In this document: positions 2,453 to 33,752 of the stretch, piece by piece | How the letters are laid out: each line of letters starts with the position of its first letter | Position numbering within the stretch: the first letter of the stretch is position 1 | Origin: Escherichia coli | GTDB lineage: Bacteria > Pseudomonadota > Gammaproteobacteria > Enterobacterales > Enterobacteriaceae | Length of the DNA: 36,351 nt | Reading direction: 5' to 3' (one strand) | Assembly (NCBI RefSeq): GCF_017348835.2 | Contig: NZ_CP072313.1 | Translations under genes and position numbers: made by a program | Notes under the pieces: model-generated | What the model was told of the DNA's origin: nothing | The model's database searches: none | Seen by the model: only the letters and a program-made list of their open reading frames with translations

Positions 2453-2866
2453 TTAAAATCTCCTGTCCGTTTGGACTTAAGAAGGAAAGGAGCCAATCCC
2501 CTTTCGATGAAACAATAATACATCTATTTAGATGTATTATCAAGATTTCTGGCCTGAAAAACGGTAAATTATTTGATGATTGCACGCTTTTTATCCGCGC
2601 CAGCGGATGGAAGGGGCGAACGAAAAAACCAGGGGAGCACAAGAGCCACATCGCCCCGGGGCGCGGCAACGCCGCTACTGCTATCGACCGGAACCTGGAC
2701 CACCTTCCCCGTCCTGCTAAGCCCGACTGACTCAAAGGCAACGATGGCGCTGATTTGCGCCGCAGAATGCCGCAGTTAGCGCTCGCGCCAGCGAGTTTAC
2801 GCCGTCCAGGAAAACCTGGACGGGGCGCTGTACTGCGCGTGTGAGCGTCAGCGAGCTACGGGCGCA
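2453..2866 (+). repeat. type-A module copy 2
   Basis: near-identical to 693-1123 and 4523-4950; hairpin loop variant CCGTCCAGG-AAAA-CCTGGACGG. Confidence 0.8.
2515..2543 (-). promoter_or_regulatory. sigma70-type promoter of module A2 (-35 TTGATA, 17-bp spacer, -10 TATTAT)
   Basis: same architecture and near-identical sequence as 755-783. Confidence 0.55.
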
Positions 2867-3113
2867 ATTGCTCATTGATTTCGTTGTGCGTCATGTTGCC
2901 CCTTTTACAAAGGACGTATTCAGGGTGTTCTCCAGCAAGCAATAACAGATACTCAAATTCACCTTTTGACAAATTTAATTGGTTGTGGGTTTTTGCTTCC
3001 TTTTTCTGCCATGTACTTAAGCCTACGCCAAAAATTTCACCGCATTCTGTCTGGGTAAGGCCAATTTTTTTACGTAATTTCTTTATGTTTTCCGGTGTAT
3101 TTTCAATAGTCAT
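2856..3113 (-). CDS. XRE-family helix-turn-helix DNA-binding protein (85 aa), possible antitoxin or regulator
   Basis: HTH signature IKKLRKKIGLTQTECGEIFGVGLSTWQKKE; start overlaps upstream gene by 4 nt; stop codon lies in the conserved end of element A2. Confidence 0.6.
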   Translation of the reverse strand: MTIENTPENIKKLRKKIGLTQTECGEIFGVGLSTWQKKEAKTHNQLNLSKGEFEYLLLLAGEHPEYVLCKRGNMTHNEINEQLRP

Positions 3114-3364
3114 GTTTCATTCTCCTTATATTCTTTCATCATGGTTAAAAGAATACTCTTATCAACAGGTTTTAAACCATTTTTTGTAAAATCTATTGCC
3201 CCAACTTCATTTTCATTAAAAACCAGTTCGCTTAACGTTCTCTTTGTCGTTTTAGTTTTTCCTTCTGTGTACACCTTTGAATAGCTGCTTATTTTTTTTA
3301 CAAAATGATATTTTTCATCAATCATTTCAAGATAATAAGTCAATCGCCCTTTGTTTTTTCTCAT
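3110..3364 (-). CDS. hypothetical protein (84 aa), translationally coupled to the HTH gene
   Basis: ORF in the track; 4-nt overlaps at both ends (3361-3364 and 3110-3113). Confidence 0.5.
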   Translation of the reverse strand: MRKNKGRLTYYLEMIDEKYHFVKKISSYSKVYTEGKTKTTKRTLSELVFNENEVGAIDFTKNGLKPVDKSILLTMMKEYKENET

Positions 3365-3903
3365 AACTGTTTCAAATATCCTGTAATTTTAACAAGTTGA
3401 TCTATGTTCAAGCCCCGAATCTGCAAATCATAACGCTCGCCCTGTTTGATGACTTTACCGTTCAATCCGTTTTCAACTTTAAAGCCTGTCAATGCCCCAT
3501 ACCAGCTTTCAAGCTGGACAAGTTGCGATAACATACCTTTCAGGATCAGAATTTCGTCCTTTTTTACCTCCTGGCTTTTCTCATACTCAATCGCCTGTAA
3601 CACCTCCTGCGAAGCATTTATCAGAATTTTTCGCTCGATATCGGCTGCTATATCAACGGGATTCCGCTTCCTAGATAACGTGCAAACATGATGCGGACTA
3701 CGCCAGGAACGACTGTCCACACTCCCCACAACAGAAAATCGCTCTTTTTCCATCCGAATATGCACGGAGTAATTTTTAAACTGCGGTGATGTCAGTTTTA
3801 TACGAGACGGACAATCATCAAGTTTGTTCACGCGCCAGCCGTTCCCCAAGATACGGCAGACAACTTCAAAGACAGGGTGATATTGTTCAAAAAAAGAGTT
3901 CAT
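3361..3903 (-). CDS. hypothetical protein (180 aa), first gene of a three-gene operon
   Basis: ORF in the track; no family recognised. Confidence 0.5.
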   Translation of the reverse strand: MNSFFEQYHPVFEVVCRILGNGWRVNKLDDCPSRIKLTSPQFKNYSVHIRMEKERFSVVGSVDSRSWRSPHHVCTLSRKRNPVDIAADIERKILINASQEVLQAIEYEKSQEVKKDEILILKGMLSQLVQLESWYGALTGFKVENGLNGKVIKQGERYDLQIRGLNIDQLVKITGYLKQL

Positions 3904-4006
3904 CTGTTTTCCTTTTTGCTACGTGGCAGCTGTTCCCGTCTTTTGGGGTTCGATGCCCTAAAAGACGAGCTGGTTATGATATCGGGGGCTTCTGCCCCCG
4001 TTCCGG

Positions 4007-4522
4007 TTACGCTCTGTTTTCCACGCGTTGCCACCCTGTCGCCCTGCGCTGTCCAGTCGTACCGTATTTTGCGCGGATTTCTTCTATCGTGTGTTCTTCA
4101 CGATTCCAGTAACGTTTATGTTCTTCTGGACGATAAAACCATTGTTTTTTCTTTGCCGCCCATTTACACCCGATTTCTTTTAAAGTTTCTTTATGTGTAA
4201 TGGTATCTCCACTAATCCAGACCCAGTTACCTATAACTTCAAATACCAGACCTGATAAACCAGAAAGAACGTTTAATACTTTTTCCAGGTCGTCACCGTA
4301 ATTATATCGAGAATGTTCATCAGTGCTCTGAAACTGATTAATTTTATCGATGTTAGCCATGAGAAAATCAAAAGCTGCATTTACCGCTTTCATCAGTTCA
4401 GCCCCTAAAGGATTACGATCTGGATGATATTTTAACGCAGCTTTTCTGTATGCTGCTTTGATATCTTTTTCGGTTAATTCACCGGATAACCCAAAAACAT
4501 TTAACGCTTCCTGGATATTCAT
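4007..4522 (-). CDS. J-domain (DnaJ-like) protein, 171 aa, first gene downstream of module A3 promoter
   Basis: N-terminal J-domain with the invariant HPD motif (AAYRKAALKYHPDRNP); C-terminal part unrecognised. Confidence 0.7.
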   Translation of the reverse strand: MNIQEALNVFGLSGELTEKDIKAAYRKAALKYHPDRNPLGAELMKAVNAAFDFLMANIDKINQFQSTDEHSRYNYGDDLEKVLNVLSGLSGLVFEVIGNWVWISGDTITHKETLKEIGCKWAAKKKQWFYRPEEHKRYWNREEHTIEEIRAKYGTTGQRRATGWQRVENRA

Positions 4523-4950
4523 TTCAAATCTCCTGTCCGTTTGGACTTAAGAAGGAAAGGAGCCAATCTCCTTTCGATGAAACAATAATACATCTATTTG
4601 GATGTATTATCAAGGTTTCTGATCTGAAAAACGGTAAATTATTTGATGATTGTCACGCTGTTATCCGCGCCAGCGGATGTAAGGGGCGAACGAAAGTTCC
4701 AGGGTAGCACAGGAGCCACATCGCCCCGAAGCGCGGCAACGCCGCTACTGTTATCAACCGGAACCAGGGAACACCCTCCCGCCCTGCTAAGCCCGACTGA
4801 CTCACAGACAACGATGACGCTGATTTGCGCCGCAGAATGCCGCAGTTAGCGCTCGCGCCAGCGAGTTTACGCCGTCCAGGGTTTCCCTGGACGGGGCGCT
4901 GTACTGCGCGTGTGAGCGTCAGCGAGCTACGGGCGCAACACGCCAGAAGT
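4523..4950 (+). repeat. type-A module copy 3
   Basis: near-identical to 693-1123 and 2453-2866. Confidence 0.8.
4585..4613 (-). promoter_or_regulatory. sigma70-type promoter of module A3 (-35 TTGATA, 17-bp spacer, -10 TATTAT)
   Basis: same as the promoters at 755-783 and 2515-2543. Confidence 0.55.
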
Positions 4951-5104
4951 TAAGCAGCCCTCATTGGCATCCCCACGACCTGAAGGACGTGGGGTTACGT
5001 CGCATTTGACAGGGATTCCCCATGTAAATCTTAAAGATTCCTGTTGAACATCTTAAATACTTCTGTAGTATACCTATAGTAATTACCTAACAGGGGAGAC
5101 AGTA

Positions 5105-8148: not shown

Positions 8149-9204
8149 CTAGTGGGGTGGAGAAGCTGTCAGGGCCAGTTCAAGCTGACGTAGATCCCTG
8201 GCTACCAGTTGCTCTAATCTTTCTTTAGTGCACCAGTACGCTTCGTCCGGCGACATACGCTTCAGAATAAACCGTGCAATTTCGTTTCGCTGTTCATCAT
8301 ACGGCAGTTTTGCAAGGCGATTGGCACGTTTGCGCTTTGCTGCTTTCTCTCGTCGGAACTTGATGGCATCGAGAGAACGCTGCGCATACCAGCGTTTACG
8401 AGCCGAGTGAACAGAGATTTCCTCGCCCTCGCGGATAACGCCTTCTTTAATCAGTTGCAGACGGATTTCACTTTCTGCAAGGCGCTTACGTTGCTGTTCC
8501 TGAAGTTTCACCAGATCAACTCCCAGCATTTTCCAGCCAGTTTCGGTGATCCAGACGTATTTCGGCAGTCGCTGGCGGGATTCACGGTCCCATATCGTCT
8601 TTTCTGACGTTCCCAACGTGCCAAAGGAAACCTGCTCTGCCAGCAGACGGGAAAGGCGCGATACTGTGACTGCGGTTTCAGGAATAACGTTTCCCTTACT
8701 GTCTTTTGGGCTTATTTCTTCTGCCAGGCGGGAGACAGACATGCCGACAGTGTGCAATCCACGATCACAAAAACTCACAAGTACAACCCATATTGCGTCA
8801 AGCAGCCGCTGTTTCTCCGGTCGGAATTTATATTTGCGACCGACACTCTGACGTTTCAGTACATAAAATGGATGCAACGACATATGCATTCTGAGTGTGT
8901 ACTGACCAGTGACCGGGTCTTTTTTAACGAGACGATTGTAAGCGTGGCCCAACTGTCCGCCCAGCGCCTTATAGCTGTCGGGACGGAACCAGGCTGGATT
9001 CTCACACTTTGGCTTAGTGGAATGTTCACCACGGCGGCGCTTCGTGCTCCGTTTTTCCGGTTCAACCAGAAATGACGTGGCCCTGCCCGATTCGTAATCC
9101 TCCCAGAAAAGGATTTGCTCTTCGGGAGACAGTTCACTCCAGTGTAATGAAGGCCTGTTCAGGGAAGCCATAAGCAATCGCTTATGGCAGAGCTTGATTC
9201 GCAC
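8149..9204 (-). CDS. repA: plasmid replication initiator RepA (IncFII/IncI-complex RepA family)
   Basis: overall resemblance to RepA1/RepZ-type initiators; GTG start at 9204, alternative ATG at 9171; terminator and DnaA box downstream, antisense-RNA-like hairpin upstream. Confidence 0.7.
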   Translation of the reverse strand: MRIKLCHKRLLMASLNRPSLHWSELSPEEQILFWEDYESGRATSFLVEPEKRSTKRRRGEHSTKPKCENPAWFRPDSYKALGGQLGHAYNRLVKKDPVTGQYTLRMHMSLHPFYVLKRQSVGRKYKFRPEKQRLLDAIWVVLVSFCDRGLHTVGMSVSRLAEEISPKDSKGNVIPETAVTVSRLSRLLAEQVSFGTLGTSEKTIWDRESRQRLPKYVWITETGWKMLGVDLVKLQEQQRKRLAESEIRLQLIKEGVIREGEEISVHSARKRWYAQRSLDAIKFRREKAAKRKRANRLAKLPYDEQRNEIARFILKRMSPDEAYWCTKERLEQLVARDLRQLELALTASPPH

Positions 9205-27390: not shown

Positions 27391-29553
27391 ATGAAACTTT
27401 TTATTGCAGAAAAACCCGCAGTAGCAAATGATATTGTTAAGGCTCTTGGGGGCAATTTCACCCGTCATGATGGCTGGTTTGAAAGTGATAATGCCATTGT
27501 GACTAACTGCTTTGGTCATATTATCGAATCACAGCCACCGGAAAACTATAATCCTGATTACAAAGCCTGGAAAGTTGAAACACTCCCTTTACGTCTTTAC
27601 CCCGTCAAATATCAGCCAGTAGAAAGTGCCGCAAAGCAGGTTAACACAATTCTTGAGCTTATCAGACGTGGAGACGTGACTGAAATTGTTCATGCTGGCG
27701 ACCCTGATGAAGAAGGTCAGCTACTTGTTGATGAAGTTCTGGAATATGCGGGGAACACAAAACCCGTTAAGCGCGTTCTGATTAACGACAACACGCTTCC
27801 GGCAGTGAAAAAGGCACTGGCAAATCTTAAAGATAATCGTGATTTCAAAGGGCTTTACCTTAAGGCGCTGGCGCGTTCAGTTGCTGATGCCGTCTATGGC
27901 TTCTCTATGACGCGTGCTTACACAATCCCGGCAAAAACTAAAGGCTATAAAGGTGTTTTGTCTGTCGGACGGGTCCAGACACCCGTGCTTGGCCTGATTG
28001 TGAATCGTACCCGCGCTAACCAGAACCATAAATCCAGTTTTTACTACACCATGACCGGAGTCTTTCAGCGTGGTGCTGATGTTATCAGGGCGAACTGGAA
28101 GCCAGGGGAATTTGCTCCGCTGACAGACCGTAAATTACTTGATAAAGCGTGGGCAGACGGAACGGCAGCATCCCTTGCAGGAAAACCGGCTACAGTTGAA
28201 GCGGCAGCAACTGATGATAAAAAAACGGCTGCGCCGTTGCCGTTTAACCTGGTCAGACTCCAGCAATACATGAACAAGAAGTTCAAAATGACGGCACAAA
28301 AAACGCTGGATATTACGCAACAACTACGCGAAAAATATAAAGCAATTACTTATAACCGCTCTGATTGCTCATATCTTTCTGATGAACAATTCAGCGAAGC
28401 GCCGCAGGTTATCGATGCCCTGAAATCAGTCTTTCCTCAGTCGCTGGATATTGATTCTGCACGTAAAAGCAAAGCGTTTAACAGTGCAAAGGTGACTGCG
28501 CATACTGCGATAATCCCGACCGCCAGTGTGCCTGATGTTAACGCACTCAGCACCGACGAGCGCAATGTTTACCTGGCGATCGCACAACACTATCTTGTTC
28601 AGTTCATGCCTGAAAAAGCATACCAGGAAGTATCGGTTGCCATTCAGTGTGGTGATGAGTCGTTCTATGCCCGTGCCAGAAAAACAACTGACAGCGGATT
28701 TGAGGCGTTTCTTGGCGCGGAAACCACAGACGAAGGTGAATCAGAAGATAATGATGATTCCGCTTTTGAACAGCTTTGCAAAATTCGCACTGGTGAAACA
28801 CTGACAACAAAAGAAGTTGTTGTTAATGAGAAGAAAACAACACCGCCGCCGTTATTCACCGAAGCCTCCTTGCTTGCTGCGCTTGTTCGTGTCGCGGATT
28901 TTGTCACTGATCCAGTGATTAAAAAATTACTGAAGGATAAGGATAAAGACAAAAAAGATGAACATGGCGGTATTGGTACGCCAGCTACACGCGCTGCCAT
29001 TCTGGAAGCGCTGAAGAAGAGAAATTATATCACGCTGGAAAAAGGGAAACTTATTCCGACGGATACCGGATGTGCGCTTATTGATGCCCTACCAGGTATA
29101 GCGGTTAATCCTGATATGACAGCATTATGGTCTGAAAAACAGTCTGCCATTGAAAATGGCGACCTGACGGTTGAACAGTTTATTAATGATCTGTACGGTG
29201 AACTGACAGGCATGATTTCTGATGTTGACCTGGGCGAAATGAAAATTGAACCCGCAGCGCCAGCCGGACAATCTCCACGCCTGAGTTCTCCCTGCCCTTC
29301 CTGTGGTAAAGCGATTATTATCAGACCAAAAGGTTATTTCTGTACAGGATGTGAATTTAAAATCTGGAAAAATTTTTCTGGTAAAGCATTATCCGATAAG
29401 CAAGTGGAAACACTTGTTACAAAAGGTATTACCGGAGAATTAAAAGGATTTGTTAGTTCAAAAACGAATAAGAATTTCTCGGCTAAGGTTAAACTTGTTG
29501 ATAAAACGGCCGGAAAGCTGGGATTTGAATTTACCCACAAAAAATCAATATAG
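27391..29553 (+). CDS. topB: DNA topoisomerase III (TopB)
   Basis: 720 aa; Toprim-type N-terminus MKLFIAEKP; C-terminal zinc-ribbon Cys pairs (CPSCGK...CTGCEFK). Confidence 0.9.
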   Translation: MKLFIAEKPAVANDIVKALGGNFTRHDGWFESDNAIVTNCFGHIIESQPPENYNPDYKAWKVETLPLRLYPVKYQPVESAAKQVNTILELIRRGDVTEIVHAGDPDEEGQLLVDEVLEYAGNTKPVKRVLINDNTLPAVKKALANLKDNRDFKGLYLKALARSVADAVYGFSMTRAYTIPAKTKGYKGVLSVGRVQTPVLGLIVNRTRANQNHKSSFYYTMTGVFQRGADVIRANWKPGEFAPLTDRKLLDKAWADGTAASLAGKPATVEAAATDDKKTAAPLPFNLVRLQQYMNKKFKMTAQKTLDITQQLREKYKAITYNRSDCSYLSDEQFSEAPQVIDALKSVFPQSLDIDSARKSKAFNSAKVTAHTAIIPTASVPDVNALSTDERNVYLAIAQHYLVQFMPEKAYQEVSVAIQCGDESFYARARKTTDSGFEAFLGAETTDEGESEDNDDSAFEQLCKIRTGETLTTKEVVVNEKKTTPPPLFTEASLLAALVRVADFVTDPVIKKLLKDKDKDKKDEHGGIGTPATRAAILEALKKRNYITLEKGKLIPTDTGCALIDALPGIAVNPDMTALWSEKQSAIENGDLTVEQFINDLYGELTGMISDVDLGEMKIEPAAPAGQSPRLSSPCPSCGKAIIIRPKGYFCTGCEFKIWKNFSGKALSDKQVETLVTKGITGELKGFVSSKTNKNFSAKVKLVDKTAGKLGFEFTHKKSI

Positions 29554-29723: not shown

Positions 29724-32700
29724 TTAACGGGACCGCGTGTTATCCCTGTTTCTTTCCCGTTCACGCTCATTTTTCAAAGCGTTGTCATAACTCACTATTT
29801 CACGCTTCACGGCCTCTACCGTTTCAGGTTTTTTCATTGCTGCCTTGAGATCGTTTACATCCTCAAAACGTATGAATTTGAGCGTATCTTTGACTGTTTG
29901 TTTGTCAATATTCATTTCCTTCGCCAGTTGCTTAGAAATTCGCTCAATTTCTCTTTCCATCGCTTTTTCACTATTGACAGTCCGCTTTTTCTTTTCTGTA
30001 GTATTCTCGTTTTTTTCCTCGACTGATTTAGCTTTTTTCTGCCCTTGTTGTTCCTCAAAGGCTTTAATCTGTTCATTAATCGTCTGAGCACGGGCCGAAA
30101 TACTGTTAACCCCTTTCGAAAGCAGATCAACCTCTTCTTTCGGCGCACCATTTTCTACAGCTTCATTCAGTAAACGCTGGGCTTCCTGGTGCTGGCTGGC
30201 AATAACTTTTGCCTCTTCCTGTAGCTGCTGTAGCGATGCGTTATTTTGCTGATGAGGATTTTCAGTGGCTAACGCGGATTTGCTTTGCTCATCTCCGGTC
30301 TGTTTATCCTGACCAGTAGTCACGTCTTTCTCTGTTACCGGCTTCTGTTGCTGCGCTTCTTGTGGCTGCTGCTCGCGTTCTTCAGAATGAGCCGAAACGT
30401 TCTGCTGCACAGACTCCTGTTTTTCCGCTTCCTGTACCACGGATGTTTCAGACGTGGATTTTTGAGAAACAGTTTCTGACTTAACAGGCTGTTCCGGCAC
30501 TGCATCACGCGATTTATCATCATTATGTACAGATTCCGCTACTTCGGGCGTTCTTTCCTTAGCCTGGGTGTCTTTCTCGACTGAATTAACCTGCTCTGCT
30601 CTCTTTTCCTGCTCCTGTTCTGGTTTCTGTCCGGCGACTTGTTGCTGACGCTCTGCCTCGACGCTGTTTTCATGTCCATGTTCAGCTTTCAGTTCCTGGA
30701 GGCGGACCTGCATCATTTCATGATATTTTTCAGGTCGCAGAATAACATTCATCCCCTTCTCGGCTGCCGCCATTGCACAGGCTACCTTAAATTCTTCCGA
30801 GCCATTGAGTTTCAGCATCCCACCAAATTTCTCTTTTGCATAAAGAAGGGCTGCTTCAGCTTTATCCTGGGTAATTTCACCATTTACACGAACATGATTT
30901 CCTTTATCAGTGAAAACAGTCTGTGTTGTCTTCGGATCAAGGTAACGCGTTTCTTTTGGGCTGACCTTATGAGGAACAAGATCGGTTAGTTCACGTTTTA
31001 CATAATCCTGAACTTGCTGGGATTGCTGTACTCGCTTAACTACGCTGAAAACTTCCTTTTCATTACCGGAAGAAATGCTGTTTCCATCAACCGGATTACG
31101 GATTATCTTTTTTAAAGAATCACCTAAAGCCATATCATATCTCCTGTCTGGATTCCAACGGTGATAGTATGAGTTTATTTCGCGAAAACATGCCTTTCGA
31201 ATTGAGTTTATTTCACTCTCTCTTTCCAGCTTTTTAAATATAATGTACCCTCTAGCAACCTCCCGTTCCTGCTTGTTTCTTATCGCCAGAAGCCCTCTGA
31301 GTTCTGCCCTGTAATTAGCTATATTATCATTATGCTTATATTTAATCTCATTATTTACCCAACCTTTATGTTCATTTAAACAAATAAATCTTTCTTTTGC
31401 CTGTTGACGCGTAAGATTTACACGGGTAATAACAGCATCAAAAGGTTTGTTATCTTTCTGATCCTGCCAGATATCAAGTAATACCTCTTTTGCCTCATCC
31501 CATTCAAGATTCAGATGTTTAGTTAAAAAATCACTGGCATTCATATTTCGATTGCCAACTCTGAAACGCGGAGATCCATCCTGTCCATAGGTGACAGTAT
31601 GCTTTGATGGATCTATGTTAAAGCGTGTTTGCAGATTGGACAAATAACGTTCAGCATTAATTTCTGTGCGAATTTGTTTCAAAAAAGGTAAATCATCACT
31701 GCGCTGAATCGCCGCTTTAATATTTGATTCAAGCGCTGACTGAACTACTCTTCTTCCTGCTCTATCCTGCAACCGTCGCACATATCGATCTGGATCGACT
31801 TTTTGTCGTCCAGCCGTTGATAAATAACCGTATTCATTTTGCTGCAATAACAACTGAGATTTATTAATGCTTTTCCCACCTGATCTTCCGTGAAGTCCGT
31901 AAACCAGTTTGCGTGCTGGCAGACGTGGCAATCCGATTGTCTTACCGGATACAAACTTTCCGGTATTGTATTTAATACCGGACTGGTCACTATTCTGTCG
32001 TCGGTCCTGTCTTTGAAGGTTGTGTTTTTCGTCATAACGATTAATTACCTTTTTCAGATACATTTGCTTATCTTCACCAGCAAGTGCTGCATATTCTTTA
32101 CGAATTTTTTGCCCTGCCGGATGAATATGTTTTATCTCATGACTGATCGAACTCTTCCAGTCTTTCAGATGACTCTCAATCTGCGTCTTTGTGGGTTTTA
32201 AAAGTGGTATAGTTCGATCAGAGATATACTGACGTGAAAATAAAGGGCTTTTGAGTCGAGTAAATTTAGAGTCTCCTTCGAGCTTCACACCAAAGTAGCG
32301 ATCAGACTTCCCCTTATTATACTCCTTTACCTCACCAAAACGGGAAAGATAATCAGAAAATTGTTTCTCTGTTCGGATATTCTCTGTATCCAGCGCATCA
32401 AAAACCGTGGTTTTAAACTCACTGTGCCGCTCACGGTAAAAATCGCCTTTAGCCCTGGATAATACATTAGCGTGGTTATGGTCACTGACTCTGACACCAT
32501 CTTTAGGAGAAACAAGATTGTATTTATTATTAATGTGCTCCTGTATGGCATCAAGATGTTTCAAATAATGGTTAATAACTCCCCCAGGATTTAGTTTATT
32601 TCCTGTCACCAGATTAACTTCAGGGATAACAATGTGAATGTGAGGCTTACGCTCAACCATTTCTCCTGTTTTATGATCAGGCATCTGTTTTATTTTTGGA

Positions 32701-33011
32701 AGATGCGCTTCCGCATAAAAATTATATTCATCTTCATGATAAGCGTTCATCATGAGAGACTTGTATTCCTGGACTACATCATGCAACTTTGATTCAGAAA
32801 CATCATCTTCAAAAAAGGATAACGTAATATGCATATAGCGCTCTTGACCATTATCAGGTATCGCGTCAATAACTGATTCAGTCAATGCCAGATCGCCATC
32901 CAGAACTAATCGATGGTCAATTTCATCTCGGGTATATTCCCTTCCTTGCTTATGACCTTTTTCAAGGTATTCGCATACCCCCTTATTGCCACCGCTGATT
33001 CTGACTAACAT
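29724..33011 (-). CDS. conjugative relaxase (TaxC/MOB-type) with long Q/E/K-rich C-terminal extension
   Basis: 1095 aa; histidine-triad motif HIHIVIPEVN in the N-terminal domain; adjacent to the accessory gene and putative oriT. Confidence 0.85.
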   Translation of the reverse strand: MLVRISGGNKGVCEYLEKGHKQGREYTRDEIDHRLVLDGDLALTESVIDAIPDNGQERYMHITLSFFEDDVSESKLHDVVQEYKSLMMNAYHEDEYNFYAEAHLPKIKQMPDHKTGEMVERKPHIHIVIPEVNLVTGNKLNPGGVINHYLKHLDAIQEHINNKYNLVSPKDGVRVSDHNHANVLSRAKGDFYRERHSEFKTTVFDALDTENIRTEKQFSDYLSRFGEVKEYNKGKSDRYFGVKLEGDSKFTRLKSPLFSRQYISDRTIPLLKPTKTQIESHLKDWKSSISHEIKHIHPAGQKIRKEYAALAGEDKQMYLKKVINRYDEKHNLQRQDRRQNSDQSGIKYNTGKFVSGKTIGLPRLPARKLVYGLHGRSGGKSINKSQLLLQQNEYGYLSTAGRQKVDPDRYVRRLQDRAGRRVVQSALESNIKAAIQRSDDLPFLKQIRTEINAERYLSNLQTRFNIDPSKHTVTYGQDGSPRFRVGNRNMNASDFLTKHLNLEWDEAKEVLLDIWQDQKDNKPFDAVITRVNLTRQQAKERFICLNEHKGWVNNEIKYKHNDNIANYRAELRGLLAIRNKQEREVARGYIIFKKLERESEINSIRKACFREINSYYHRWNPDRRYDMALGDSLKKIIRNPVDGNSISSGNEKEVFSVVKRVQQSQQVQDYVKRELTDLVPHKVSPKETRYLDPKTTQTVFTDKGNHVRVNGEITQDKAEAALLYAKEKFGGMLKLNGSEEFKVACAMAAAEKGMNVILRPEKYHEMMQVRLQELKAEHGHENSVEAERQQQVAGQKPEQEQEKRAEQVNSVEKDTQAKERTPEVAESVHNDDKSRDAVPEQPVKSETVSQKSTSETSVVQEAEKQESVQQNVSAHSEEREQQPQEAQQQKPVTEKDVTTGQDKQTGDEQSKSALATENPHQQNNASLQQLQEEAKVIASQHQEAQRLLNEAVENGAPKEEVDLLSKGVNSISARAQTINEQIKAFEEQQGQKKAKSVEEKNENTTEKKKRTVNSEKAMEREIERISKQLAKEMNIDKQTVKDTLKFIRFEDVNDLKAAMKKPETVEAVKREIVSYDNALKNERERERNRDNTRSR

Positions 33012-33409
33012 TTATTAATCCCTGCAACAAACGCATCACGAATATTAACAAGAACATTAAGATAGCGTAAATATGTACTTTCTGAAATAAAACCATTGCG
33101 ATATTCTGTGTTAATTTTTTTGGCTATCTGATTAATATTATTGCTTGACTTATTAAAAAGTCTGAGTAATTCTCTGTATTCAACTGGACGTTTTTGTTTC
33201 AAAGTCGGAATATCATCCAGACGATTCAGTATAACCATCCGAAAAAACTCACTACGACTGACTTCAAGAGATGTAAAATACTCATGAAATGACTGATATT
33301 CCTCATCAGTCAATCGCAGTGATATCACATGTTTTCTCTCCACCTTTGATGTGGAAGCTACAGCCTTTTTTCCTTTGTCTTGTTTTTTCATGGTTCGTAG
33401 AACCTCCAT
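33005..33409 (-). CDS. relaxosome accessory protein (TaxA-like, probable RHH DNA-binding)
   Basis: small basic protein immediately upstream of and overlapping the relaxase gene; start may be at ATG 33391. Confidence 0.6.
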   Translation of the reverse strand: MEVLRTMKKQDKGKKAVASTSKVERKHVISLRLTDEEYQSFHEYFTSLEVSRSEFFRMVILNRLDDIPTLKQKRPVEYRELLRLFNKSSNNINQIAKKINTEYRNGFISESTYLRYLNVLVNIRDAFVAGINKC

Positions 33410-33560
33410 ATAGCGACCTGGTTGTAGAGATATACTGGGGTATTAGGGGGAGATCCCCCTAAGCACGTCGATTATACCGGAATTTATTCCGTGTATACAT
33501 CGCTGTCGTGCCTGTGTCTTGTAGTAAGATCAATTGAACAAGTCACAAGCCCACATTACA
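33410..33560. other. putative origin of transfer (oriT)
   Basis: intergenic between divergent relaxase operon and stb-like genes; perfect inverted repeat TTAGGGGG-AGAT-CCCCCTAA at 33443-33462; second repeat CGGAAT-TTA-TTCCG nearby. Confidence 0.5.
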
Positions 33561-33700
33561 ACCTACACAACAACCCACACACAAAAGCATGAAGCCCACA
33601 AAACAACCCACACTTAAACCCACAAAAAAGACCACAAAACCTATTGACAACCCACACAACACCCCACATAATCACCCACACTAACGAAAAGCAAATTGAT
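33545..33700. repeat. array of about 9 CCCACA-containing direct repeats at about 10-12 bp spacing
   Basis: CCCACA recurs (agCCCACAtt, caaCCCACAcac, agCCCACAaaa, aaCCCACActt, aaCCCACAaaa, ...), upstream of the StbA-like gene. Confidence 0.6.
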
Positions 33701-33752
33701 TTAAATAAAGTACTGTGCCAATGTAGGAGGTATGAGAGAGGAAACATAACAA

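Follow-up and report, generated by a model that had tools for sequence, protein, structure and literature searches.

The 36,351-nucleotide (nt) stretch of Escherichia coli DNA analysed here (contig NZ_CP072313.1, hereafter the window) carries on its minus strand, at positions 4007 to 4522, an ATG-started gene for a J-domain protein of 171 amino acids (aa). J-domain proteins decide the targets of Hsp70, and we tentatively favor the reading that this one is a class-C J co-chaperone of the leading, or establishment, region of its plasmid, made early in the recipient cell and steering the host Hsp70, DnaK, to a dedicated client, probably by way of a partner protein encoded directly downstream. The reading builds on what was observed in the window and among its relatives, namely the identity of the domain, the conservation of its HPD motif, the apparently fixed combination of the J domain with one C-terminal domain (CTD), the location and orientation of the gene, the anatomy of the repeat and promoter in front of it, and its pairing with the partner gene.

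The near-identical E. coli plasmid NZ_CP103482.1 is continuous across the end and start of the window, which shows the window to be a complete plasmid circle. A 100% identical protein is encoded in that plasmid, and PGAP labels it 'J domain-containing protein' (WP_048267080.1).

J domain and class assignment

The gene is the first cistron of the third of three modules in the leading region. The list of open reading frames (ORFs), the Pfam DnaJ match and the PGAP coding sequence (CDS) all agree on the same frame, and the ATG lies eight bases 3' of an AGGAG. A spurious ORF at 4007 to 4522 was considered and ruled out by the deep conservation of the protein together with the matching PGAP call.

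The J domain takes up residues 1 to 65 (4328 to 4522, minus strand). PF00226 (Pfam DnaJ) matches residues 9 to 56 with an E-value of 1.6e-10, which places a helical J fold of about 70 residues within the 171-aa protein, and a phmmer search matched about 60 J domains in the PDB (best E = 2e-9). The HPD motif is formed by residues 33 to 35 (nt 4418 to 4426; coding-strand codons CAT CCA GAT). Across 76 aligned relatives sharing 29% to 60% identity, His33 and Asp35 are invariant and Pro34 is 98% conserved; the motif is also kept in 321 of the 330 fetched relatives with a near-full CTD, the exceptions being mostly truncated entries.

The DnaJ-type models of NCBIfam reach the J domain alone, with the DnaJ model scoring 36.7 bits against a cut-off of 377, and the whole-protein cut-offs are missed for CbpA (17.4 vs 403 bits), DjlA (23 vs 162) and ActJ (23 vs 150) as well. 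Neither Pfam nor NCBIfam detects a G/F region, a zinc finger, or a DnaJ_C or DnaJ_CXXCXGXG domain in the 171-aa protein. Since it lacks the G/F region, the zinc finger and the DnaJ C-terminal domain, the product is assigned, by domain composition, to the class-C (type III) J proteins and not to class A or B.

C-terminal domain

The CTD (residues 72 to 171; 4010 to 4309, minus strand) is predicted with confidence to fold as an alpha/beta domain without a known relative, its secondary structure elements following the order alpha-beta-beta-alpha-beta-beta-alpha-beta. Its conserved motif reads E..G.W.W..G.T...K..LK..G..W...KK.W ... I R..YG S, with conserved positions at E95, G98, W100, W102, G105, T107, K125, W128, I149, R150, and G154. 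The domain is basic, with a family median pI of 9.4 vs 6.5 for the J-domain part. None of 62 CTDs matches any Pfam family at E ≤ 0.001, and a profile of these 62 finds no relative in the PDB. No DNA-binding fold was recognised in the CTD, and one of its AFDB relatives is labelled 'HU domain-containing protein (Fragment)'.

Two possible kinships were rejected. Eight of the 62 CTDs match DUF5710 (PF18974) at E ≤ 0.1, with a best value of 2e-3; these matches are below significance, so membership in that family was dropped and the matches were kept as a lead only. DUF5710 is found with plasmid primases and Toprim proteins. The CTD is also unrelated to the Toprim_Crpt repeat in the TopB of this plasmid (hhalign probability 0.6%).

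A search with a CTD-only profile returns almost exclusively proteins of about 165 aa that also bear PF00226. As judged from these sequences the J domain and the CTD are an evolutionarily fixed unit, which argues that the CTD lends specificity to a working J domain. The initial annotation had described the protein as plasmid-borne, with a canonical N-terminal J domain with HPD and an unrecognised C-terminal domain. All three descriptions hold up, given that the same CDS is found in a second plasmid and the window is itself a whole circular plasmid, that Pfam detects the domain at E = 1.6e-10 with an HPD that is near-invariant in the 76 relatives, and that no Pfam family and no solved structure matches the CTD.

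Size and spread of the family

A HMMER search of 1.84 billion representatives returned 1,041 cluster representatives (50% identity) at E ≤ 1e-10; among the 150 representatives listed, most are about 165 aa long with a match spanning both the J domain and the CTD. By tblastn, the family is present in 2,576 of the 72,556 plasmids in PLSDB (about 3.5%), 2,139 of which (83%) are predicted to be conjugative, and it occurs alongside unrelated relaxases of the MOBP, MOBF, and MOBC types. Identity to the J protein is 96% on both 33-kb IncX4 and 60-kb IncI2 plasmids and 83% on 46-kb IncX3 plasmids, and falls to 65% in Aeromonas, 47% in Glaesserella, 36% in Piscirickettsia, 34% to 37% in Acinetobacter baumannii, and 27% in Enterococcus faecalis.

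Full-length copies are rare in isolated phages. A tblastn search of 50,697 phage records gave matches to large Klebsiella and Aeromonas phages (170 to 255 kb) that cover residues 1 to 54 only. The J protein is also matched by PHROG 15863 (E = 9e-38), to which no function is assigned.

In a single Pantoea stewartii genome, several copies of the J gene truncated to the first 67 to 90 residues, and 87% to 93% identical, lie on separate contigs (L028, L029, and L030). These may be pseudogenes or assembly breaks at repeats.

Partner gene

The J gene is directly followed, on the same strand, by a gene for a basic protein of 180 aa with a pI of 9.2 (3361 to 3903, minus strand). No match to this partner was found in PHROGs, NCBIfam, PADLOC, Pfam, or the PDB, and neither a fusion nor a name was found among 99 homologues. 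An iterative hidden Markov model (HMM) search over all ORFs of 42 loci from GTDB genomes with the J protein, together with annotated plasmids, detected a partner homologue encoded on the J-gene strand, next to that gene or not far off, in 28 loci of proteobacteria, which belong to Enterobacterales, Pasteurellaceae, Vibrio, Shewanella, and Pseudovibrio. Most often the partner begins 30 to 100 nt past the J stop codon, or overlaps that codon; three loci have it 1 to 3 kb away on the same strand. Distant members of the partner family are co-linear to the C-terminus in pairwise BLASTP (E = 2e-4). A reverse look-up was also made from three distant homologues with no BLAST-detectable identity to the partner in the window, and in all three cases, each in a chromosomal island, a PF00226 gene of about 170 aa lies just upstream.

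In proteobacteria the J gene is nearly always paired with a partner of about 180 aa. The partner family has no invariant residue and a median pI of 9.2, and judging by its sequences the partner is more likely to bind something than to act as an enzyme. It is most likely the client or an adaptor of the J protein; the initial annotation makes no mention of it. In one chromosomal island (L057), a DUF3768 gene (2604 to 2921 of that locus) stands between the J gene and the partner.

J proteins encoded with a small dedicated partner, be it a modulator or a client, are familiar from CbpA-CbpM and AtcJ-AtcABC, which the present pair resembles in this respect. CbpM is encoded downstream of cbpA and inhibits CbpA. 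The C-terminal extension of AtcJ, a short J protein, binds a partner from the same operon (PMC6715715). Beyond the J domain, however, there is no sequence relation to either system, and the partner in the window belongs to an unrelated family of about 180 aa.

Plasmid layout and leading region

A relaxase of 1095 aa and a VirD1-like accessory protein of 134 aa are encoded at 29724 to 33409 on the minus strand (Pfam Relaxase, E = 0.0012, plus LPD7), and MOB-suite assigns MOBP to the near-identical plasmid. Both genes are transcribed away from a gap of about 340 nt (33410 to 33752, plus strand) that is the putative origin of transfer (oriT). The gap contains inverted repeats at 33447 to 33460 and 33474 to 33498, followed on the plus strand by a nick-like site, CCTG|T, near 33510 to 33514. 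On the far side of the gap, the plus strand encodes a 133-aa ORF, a TraL-like ATPase (NF010461, E = 8.5e-53) and a 225-aa ORF. The order of relaxase and accessory genes, oriT gap, and TraL-like genes is what we take to be the IncP arrangement of traJ/traI, oriT, and the traK/L/M 'leader operon'.

With the site in this orientation, the plus strand would be the transferred strand, entering the recipient in the order 33.5 kb to 36.35 kb and then from 1 to 5 kb. Given this strand and entry order, about 7.4 kb of leading-side DNA would separate the J gene from the nick, and transcription of the gene, which reads toward oriT, would copy the transferred strand. The same orientation has been reported for leading-region genes (PMC11541004).

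The replicon gene of the plasmid encodes a RepA of IncFII/IncI2 type (8149 to 9204). A topoisomerase III-like gene at 27391 to 29553 (plus strand), with Toprim and Topoisom_bac domains and a Toprim_Crpt repeat, is like that of IncX backbones. With an IncX-type topoisomerase beside an IncFII/IncI2-type RepA, the plasmid is a mosaic of IncX-like, IncP-like, and IncI2-like parts. Rfam places a match to AgrB (RF02891; 29631 to 29716, plus strand; 61.9 bits, E = 2.7e-8) in the stretch that separates the topoisomerase gene from the 3' end of the relaxase gene. The dinQ type I toxin system has AgrB as its antisense RNA.

Setting in other plasmids and islands

Seven other plasmids were inspected, namely IncX3, IncX4, F-like IncFII, Glaesserella, Acinetobacter, Piscirickettsia, and E. 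faecalis plasmids, and in all of them the J gene is found beside transfer genes or among establishment or anti-defence genes. On IncX3 and IncX4 it is placed upstream of the relaxase genes, which are taxA/taxC in the case of IncX4, and is transcribed toward them. On the F-like IncFII/MOBF plasmid it is located in the classical leading region past traM, oriT, and a transglycosylase gene, co-directional with DUF932 and the tra operon, and the F-like plasmid of Glaesserella has the same arrangement. In the window and in these four plasmids, the J gene points toward oriT from the leading side of the relaxase or traM. It is upstream of the relaxase and co-directional with it on the Acinetobacter MOBF plasmid, about 2.5 kb from the end of traI and on the opposite strand on the Piscirickettsia MOBF plasmid, and adjoins genes for ssb, a thermonuclease, AcrIIA9 and PcfJ on the E. 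faecalis plasmid.

The neighbors of the family in chromosomal islands include toxin-antitoxin pairs, MmeI, GmrSD, and SNF2/PLD genes. On two metagenomic contigs (L010 and L011), a J-family gene without a Pfam DnaJ call is part of a long same-strand array of small genes with LPD11, DUF932, and DUF5659, a layout typical of the anti-defence or establishment arrays of integrative conjugative elements.

Module, repeats, and promoter

The three modules are each headed by a direct repeat of about 415 to 440 nt on the minus strand. Copy 3 (4523 to 4961) heads the J module, copy 2 (2453 to 2867) the module at 2452 to 1119, and copy 1 (697 to 1130) the module that includes a CcgAII-like ORF at 80 to 391. 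A three-copy alignment, together with the direct repeat families D1 to D4, shows the copies to be 88% to 100% identical, each ending at the Shine-Dalgarno sequence (AGGAG) and the ATG of the first gene of its module. The 3' part of the repeat, which runs up to this ATG, supplies the predicted promoter, an operator-like palindrome and the Shine-Dalgarno sequence. In front of the J gene, a promoter scan identified a sigma-70-type promoter at 4585 to 4613 on the minus strand (TTGATA and TATTAT separated by 17 nt), which agrees with the consensus at 10 of 12 positions. It is overlapped by the palindrome at 4585 to 4610, with 10-bp arms (ATAATACATC-N6-GATGTATTAT), which is limited to the three repeat copies, none being expected by chance. 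The initial annotation had placed the gene in a leading region under a module promoter. Its location on the leading side of the putative oriT of a conjugative-type plasmid agrees with the former. The latter stands at the level of sequence, with a 10/12 sigma-70 match inside a threefold repeat that ends at the ATG, and expression from it is a prediction.

Downstream of the J gene and the partner, the module continues with an 84-aa ORF (3110 to 3364, minus strand; from the ORF list), which also follows the partner gene in IncX4 and F-like plasmids, and ends with a gene for an 85-aa helix-turn-helix (HTH) protein of Xre/MqsA type (2856 to 3113, minus strand). The partner gene, the 84-aa ORF and the HTH gene are joined by 4-nt overlaps, the start of the 84-aa ORF overlapping the partner stop. 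The HTH protein matches phrog_7950, 'transcriptional repressor', with E = 1.7e-8, and the HTH region of TIGR03830 with E = 4e-7, and is a candidate repressor acting at the palindrome. In the 104-nt gap between the J gene and the partner, just past the J stop codon, a GC hairpin (GGGGGC-TTCT-GCCCCC, 3984 to 3999) was noticed. With no T-run next to it, it does not qualify as a canonical terminator; the relative amounts of J protein and partner might depend on it.

The upstream part of the repeat, about 280 to 300 nt, is GC-rich and structured, with a z-score of -5.4 for the fold of its single-stranded DNA (ssDNA), and is about 75% to 84% conserved in IncI2, IncX4, and F-like plasmids. On the plus strand it is predicted to fold into an imperfect hairpin of about 110 nt that includes G-T pairs impossible on the other strand. 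The consensus fold was derived from 10 copies from three plasmid types, including those at 4664 to 4939, 833 to 1108, and 2593 to 2867 in the window. Only three pairs of the whole hairpin change in a compensatory way; in the apex hairpin (CCGTCCAGG..CTGGACGG), two compensatory changes are seen. A fourth, orphan copy at 21384 to 21658, 93% identical and in the same orientation, lies inside the type IV secretion system (T4SS) block. It consists of the GC-rich part only, without the promoter and operator part and with no minus-strand gene downstream. That the GC-rich part stands alone in this copy suggests that the structured ssDNA part of the repeat and its promoter part are separable elements.

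In layout the repeat resembles a CUP element, the likeness being one of position and anatomy. To our knowledge pKM101 has no J-domain gene. In the leading region of the IncN plasmids pKM101/R46, repeated CUP elements carry ArdK-regulated promoters for the ccg/ard genes, according to Delver and Belogurov (1997) as cited in PMC6289460. They lie directly upstream of a gene or module, as the repeats of the window do, and each has a site for a plasmid repressor at its promoter, the candidate counterpart in the window being the operator-like palindrome. PGAP names the ORF at 80 to 391 in module 1 'CcgAII protein'. The repressor is ArdK in the IncN system, and the candidate for this role here is the 85-aa Xre-type protein.

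The GC-rich hairpin could be an ssi priming site or an element of the Frpo type. With the Frpo/ssi elements of F and ColIb-P9 it shares a leading-region position upstream of early genes, a single orientation, and a predicted strand-specific hairpin on what would be the transferred strand. In Frpo/ssi, however, the -35 and -10 hexamers are within the hairpin, whereas here they are outside the hairpin of about 110 nt. No Rfam family corresponds to the repeat. A distant-mode blastn search with the GC-rich element matched only about 1,170 plasmid records, those listed being mostly of IncI2-, IncX4-, or F-like size (30 to 68 kb). Because the matches do not extend to IncF and IncI1 plasmids at large, sequence homology of the element to the Frpo of F or IncI1 appears unlikely.

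The small minus-strand ORFs of modules 1 and 2 (2153 to 2452, 1711 to 2076, 1119 to 1409, 459 to 692, and 80 to 391) match no family except for a PHROG without function and the PGAP name 'CcgAII'. They are candidates for further establishment genes under the same promoter and operator.

Proposed function and alternatives

In the mechanism that we propose, the four-gene module (J gene, 180-aa partner, 84-aa ORF, and Xre-type HTH gene) would be driven by the CUP-like element and switched on after entry into a cell free of the repressor, and the HTH protein would then shut it off. The J domain would dock on the DnaK of the recipient through its HPD motif and trigger ATP hydrolysis, as expected from established J-domain biology. 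The basic CTD would give specificity, either by binding the co-transcribed partner or by binding a nucleoprotein target together with it, and the remodelling activity of DnaK would thereby be directed to one establishment task and not to general folding. That DnaK is bound, when the module is expressed, which protein is the client and what the plasmid gains are the parts of this mechanism that we infer. A leading-region protein that is made at once after entry and reprograms host physiology has been described for F, namely HerB/YfjB (PMC13370423). It is a ParB-like CTP-binding DNA clamp with no link to chaperones and no homology to the J protein.

The closest analogue from a mobile element suggests another possibility, which we hold to be unlikely: the J protein may simply titrate DnaK, so that sigma-32 is freed or stabilised and a transient heat-shock response, with more GroEL, DnaK, and proteases, eases the cost of acquisition without any plasmid client. 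Rki, the product of gene 057w of the T4-like phage RB43, is an early class-C J protein that binds DnaK and stabilises sigma-32, its J domain and CTD acting together on the host chaperone and both HPD and CTD being needed (PMC3486835). Its architecture is the same, with an N-terminal HPD J domain, a short linker and an unrecognised, uncharacterised CTD. The two differ in several respects. Rki has 237 aa rather than 171; early synthesis has been shown for Rki and is our inference for the J protein; Rki is phage-borne and its effect on sigma-32 has been demonstrated, whereas the present gene is plasmid-borne and known from its sequence. The CTDs are judged to be unrelated, given that the large Klebsiella and Aeromonas phages, which presumably include RB43 relatives, match residues 1 to 54 only and share no homology with the CTD. 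Rki also has no known obligate partner and is fused to the downstream ORF in RB16, whereas simple titration would leave the strongly conserved partner gene of the plasmid family unexplained. An anti-defence or anti-stress effector, in which the CTD and the partner would hand a host defence or stress protein to DnaK or block a DnaK-dependent abortive response to incoming ssDNA, would account for the company that the gene keeps, including ssb, AcrIIA9, and PcfJ in E. faecalis, the arrays with LPD11 and DUF932, and the toxin-antitoxin, MmeI, GmrSD, and SNF2/PLD genes of the islands. Leading regions are moreover enriched in anti-defence genes (PMC11541004). This context is guilt by association, however; neither PADLOC nor any known anti-defence family gives a match, the supplement of Samuel et al. 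contains just a five-member 'DnaJ domain-containing' family, and the word 'chaperone' is absent from its main text (PMC11541004). We assign to such an effector a similarly low probability.

A role in DNA processing, on the donor side or after entry, is distinctly improbable. The CTD and the partner would bind DNA or the relaxosome, and DnaK would remodel the relaxase or T4SS substrates, or would refold the relaxase in the recipient or strip it from the transferred strand. The basic character of both proteins (median pI 9.4 and 9.2), the AFDB relative with the HU label, and the weak DUF5710 matches of eight CTDs are compatible with this, but no DNA-binding fold was recognised, the DUF5710 matches stay below significance, and the family accompanies unrelated relaxases as well as islands in which no transfer genes are seen. 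The least probable explanation, and in our view a very unlikely one, is the activation of replication initiators brought up in the initial annotation after P1 and F, in which the J protein would bring DnaK to the plasmid Rep so that, in the new host, inactive dimers become active monomers. IncX plasmids carry the J gene, and the pi initiator of R6K is presumably also chaperone-activated. DnaK with DnaJ monomerises P1 RepA and F RepE (review PMC8215388). Proteins 83% to 96% identical, however, accompany replicons with an IncFII-type RepA as well as IncX3 and IncX4 replicons, more distant relatives occur with F-like and Pasteurellaceae replicons and with MOB-suite rep_cluster replicons of Acinetobacter and Enterococcus, and chromosomal islands without a rep gene nearby carry the family too. 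One conserved CTD is unlikely to recognise such unrelated initiators, and this replicon diversity together with the chromosomal islands disfavors initiator activation.

Several observations also weigh against the steering of DnaK to a dedicated client during establishment. The partner went undetected beside J-family genes in Acinetobacter, Piscirickettsia, Firmicutes, Bacteroidetes, and an archaeal metagenome-assembled genome of Methanobrevibacter, and thus cannot be a universal client. The cassette is also present in chromosomal islands with no transfer genes visible in the 3- to 8-kb flanks, so what it does may go beyond conjugation. The promoter, identified by its match to the consensus, is about 170 nt downstream of the ssDNA hairpin in the sense of the transcript and outside it. 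Full-text literature searches returned neither a functional study of the J gene nor a discussion of it as a leading-region gene. Many plasmid papers draw it as 'dnaJ', and one notes a reduced read abundance over the gene in experimental evolution (PMC12750680). The gene thus appears to be annotated but uncharacterised, and the CTD, the partner family and the linkage of the two appear to be undescribed in the literature searched.

Significance

Taken more broadly, the J-CTD protein and its partner might form a dedicated and widespread two-gene Hsp70-hijacking cassette of conjugative elements, switched on at entry and directing DnaK to a single establishment or anti-defence task. Were this so, which we regard with some doubt, Rki, the polyomavirus T antigens and other viral J proteins would have a counterpart on plasmids, and no plasmid-encoded co-chaperone system would have been described before it. 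The analysis brings to light a conserved CTD, a conserved partner family, and a CUP-like repeat with an apparently separable ssDNA-structured part as new objects of study. If the proposal is true, seizure of the host chaperone upon entry is something that plasmids share with some phages and animal viruses. NDM-5 and mcr-1 are spread by backbones that carry the family, among them IncX3 plasmids with NDM and IncX4 and IncI2 plasmids with mcr-1, and should the role in establishment hold, the spread of resistance would include a step that is general and might be open to intervention.

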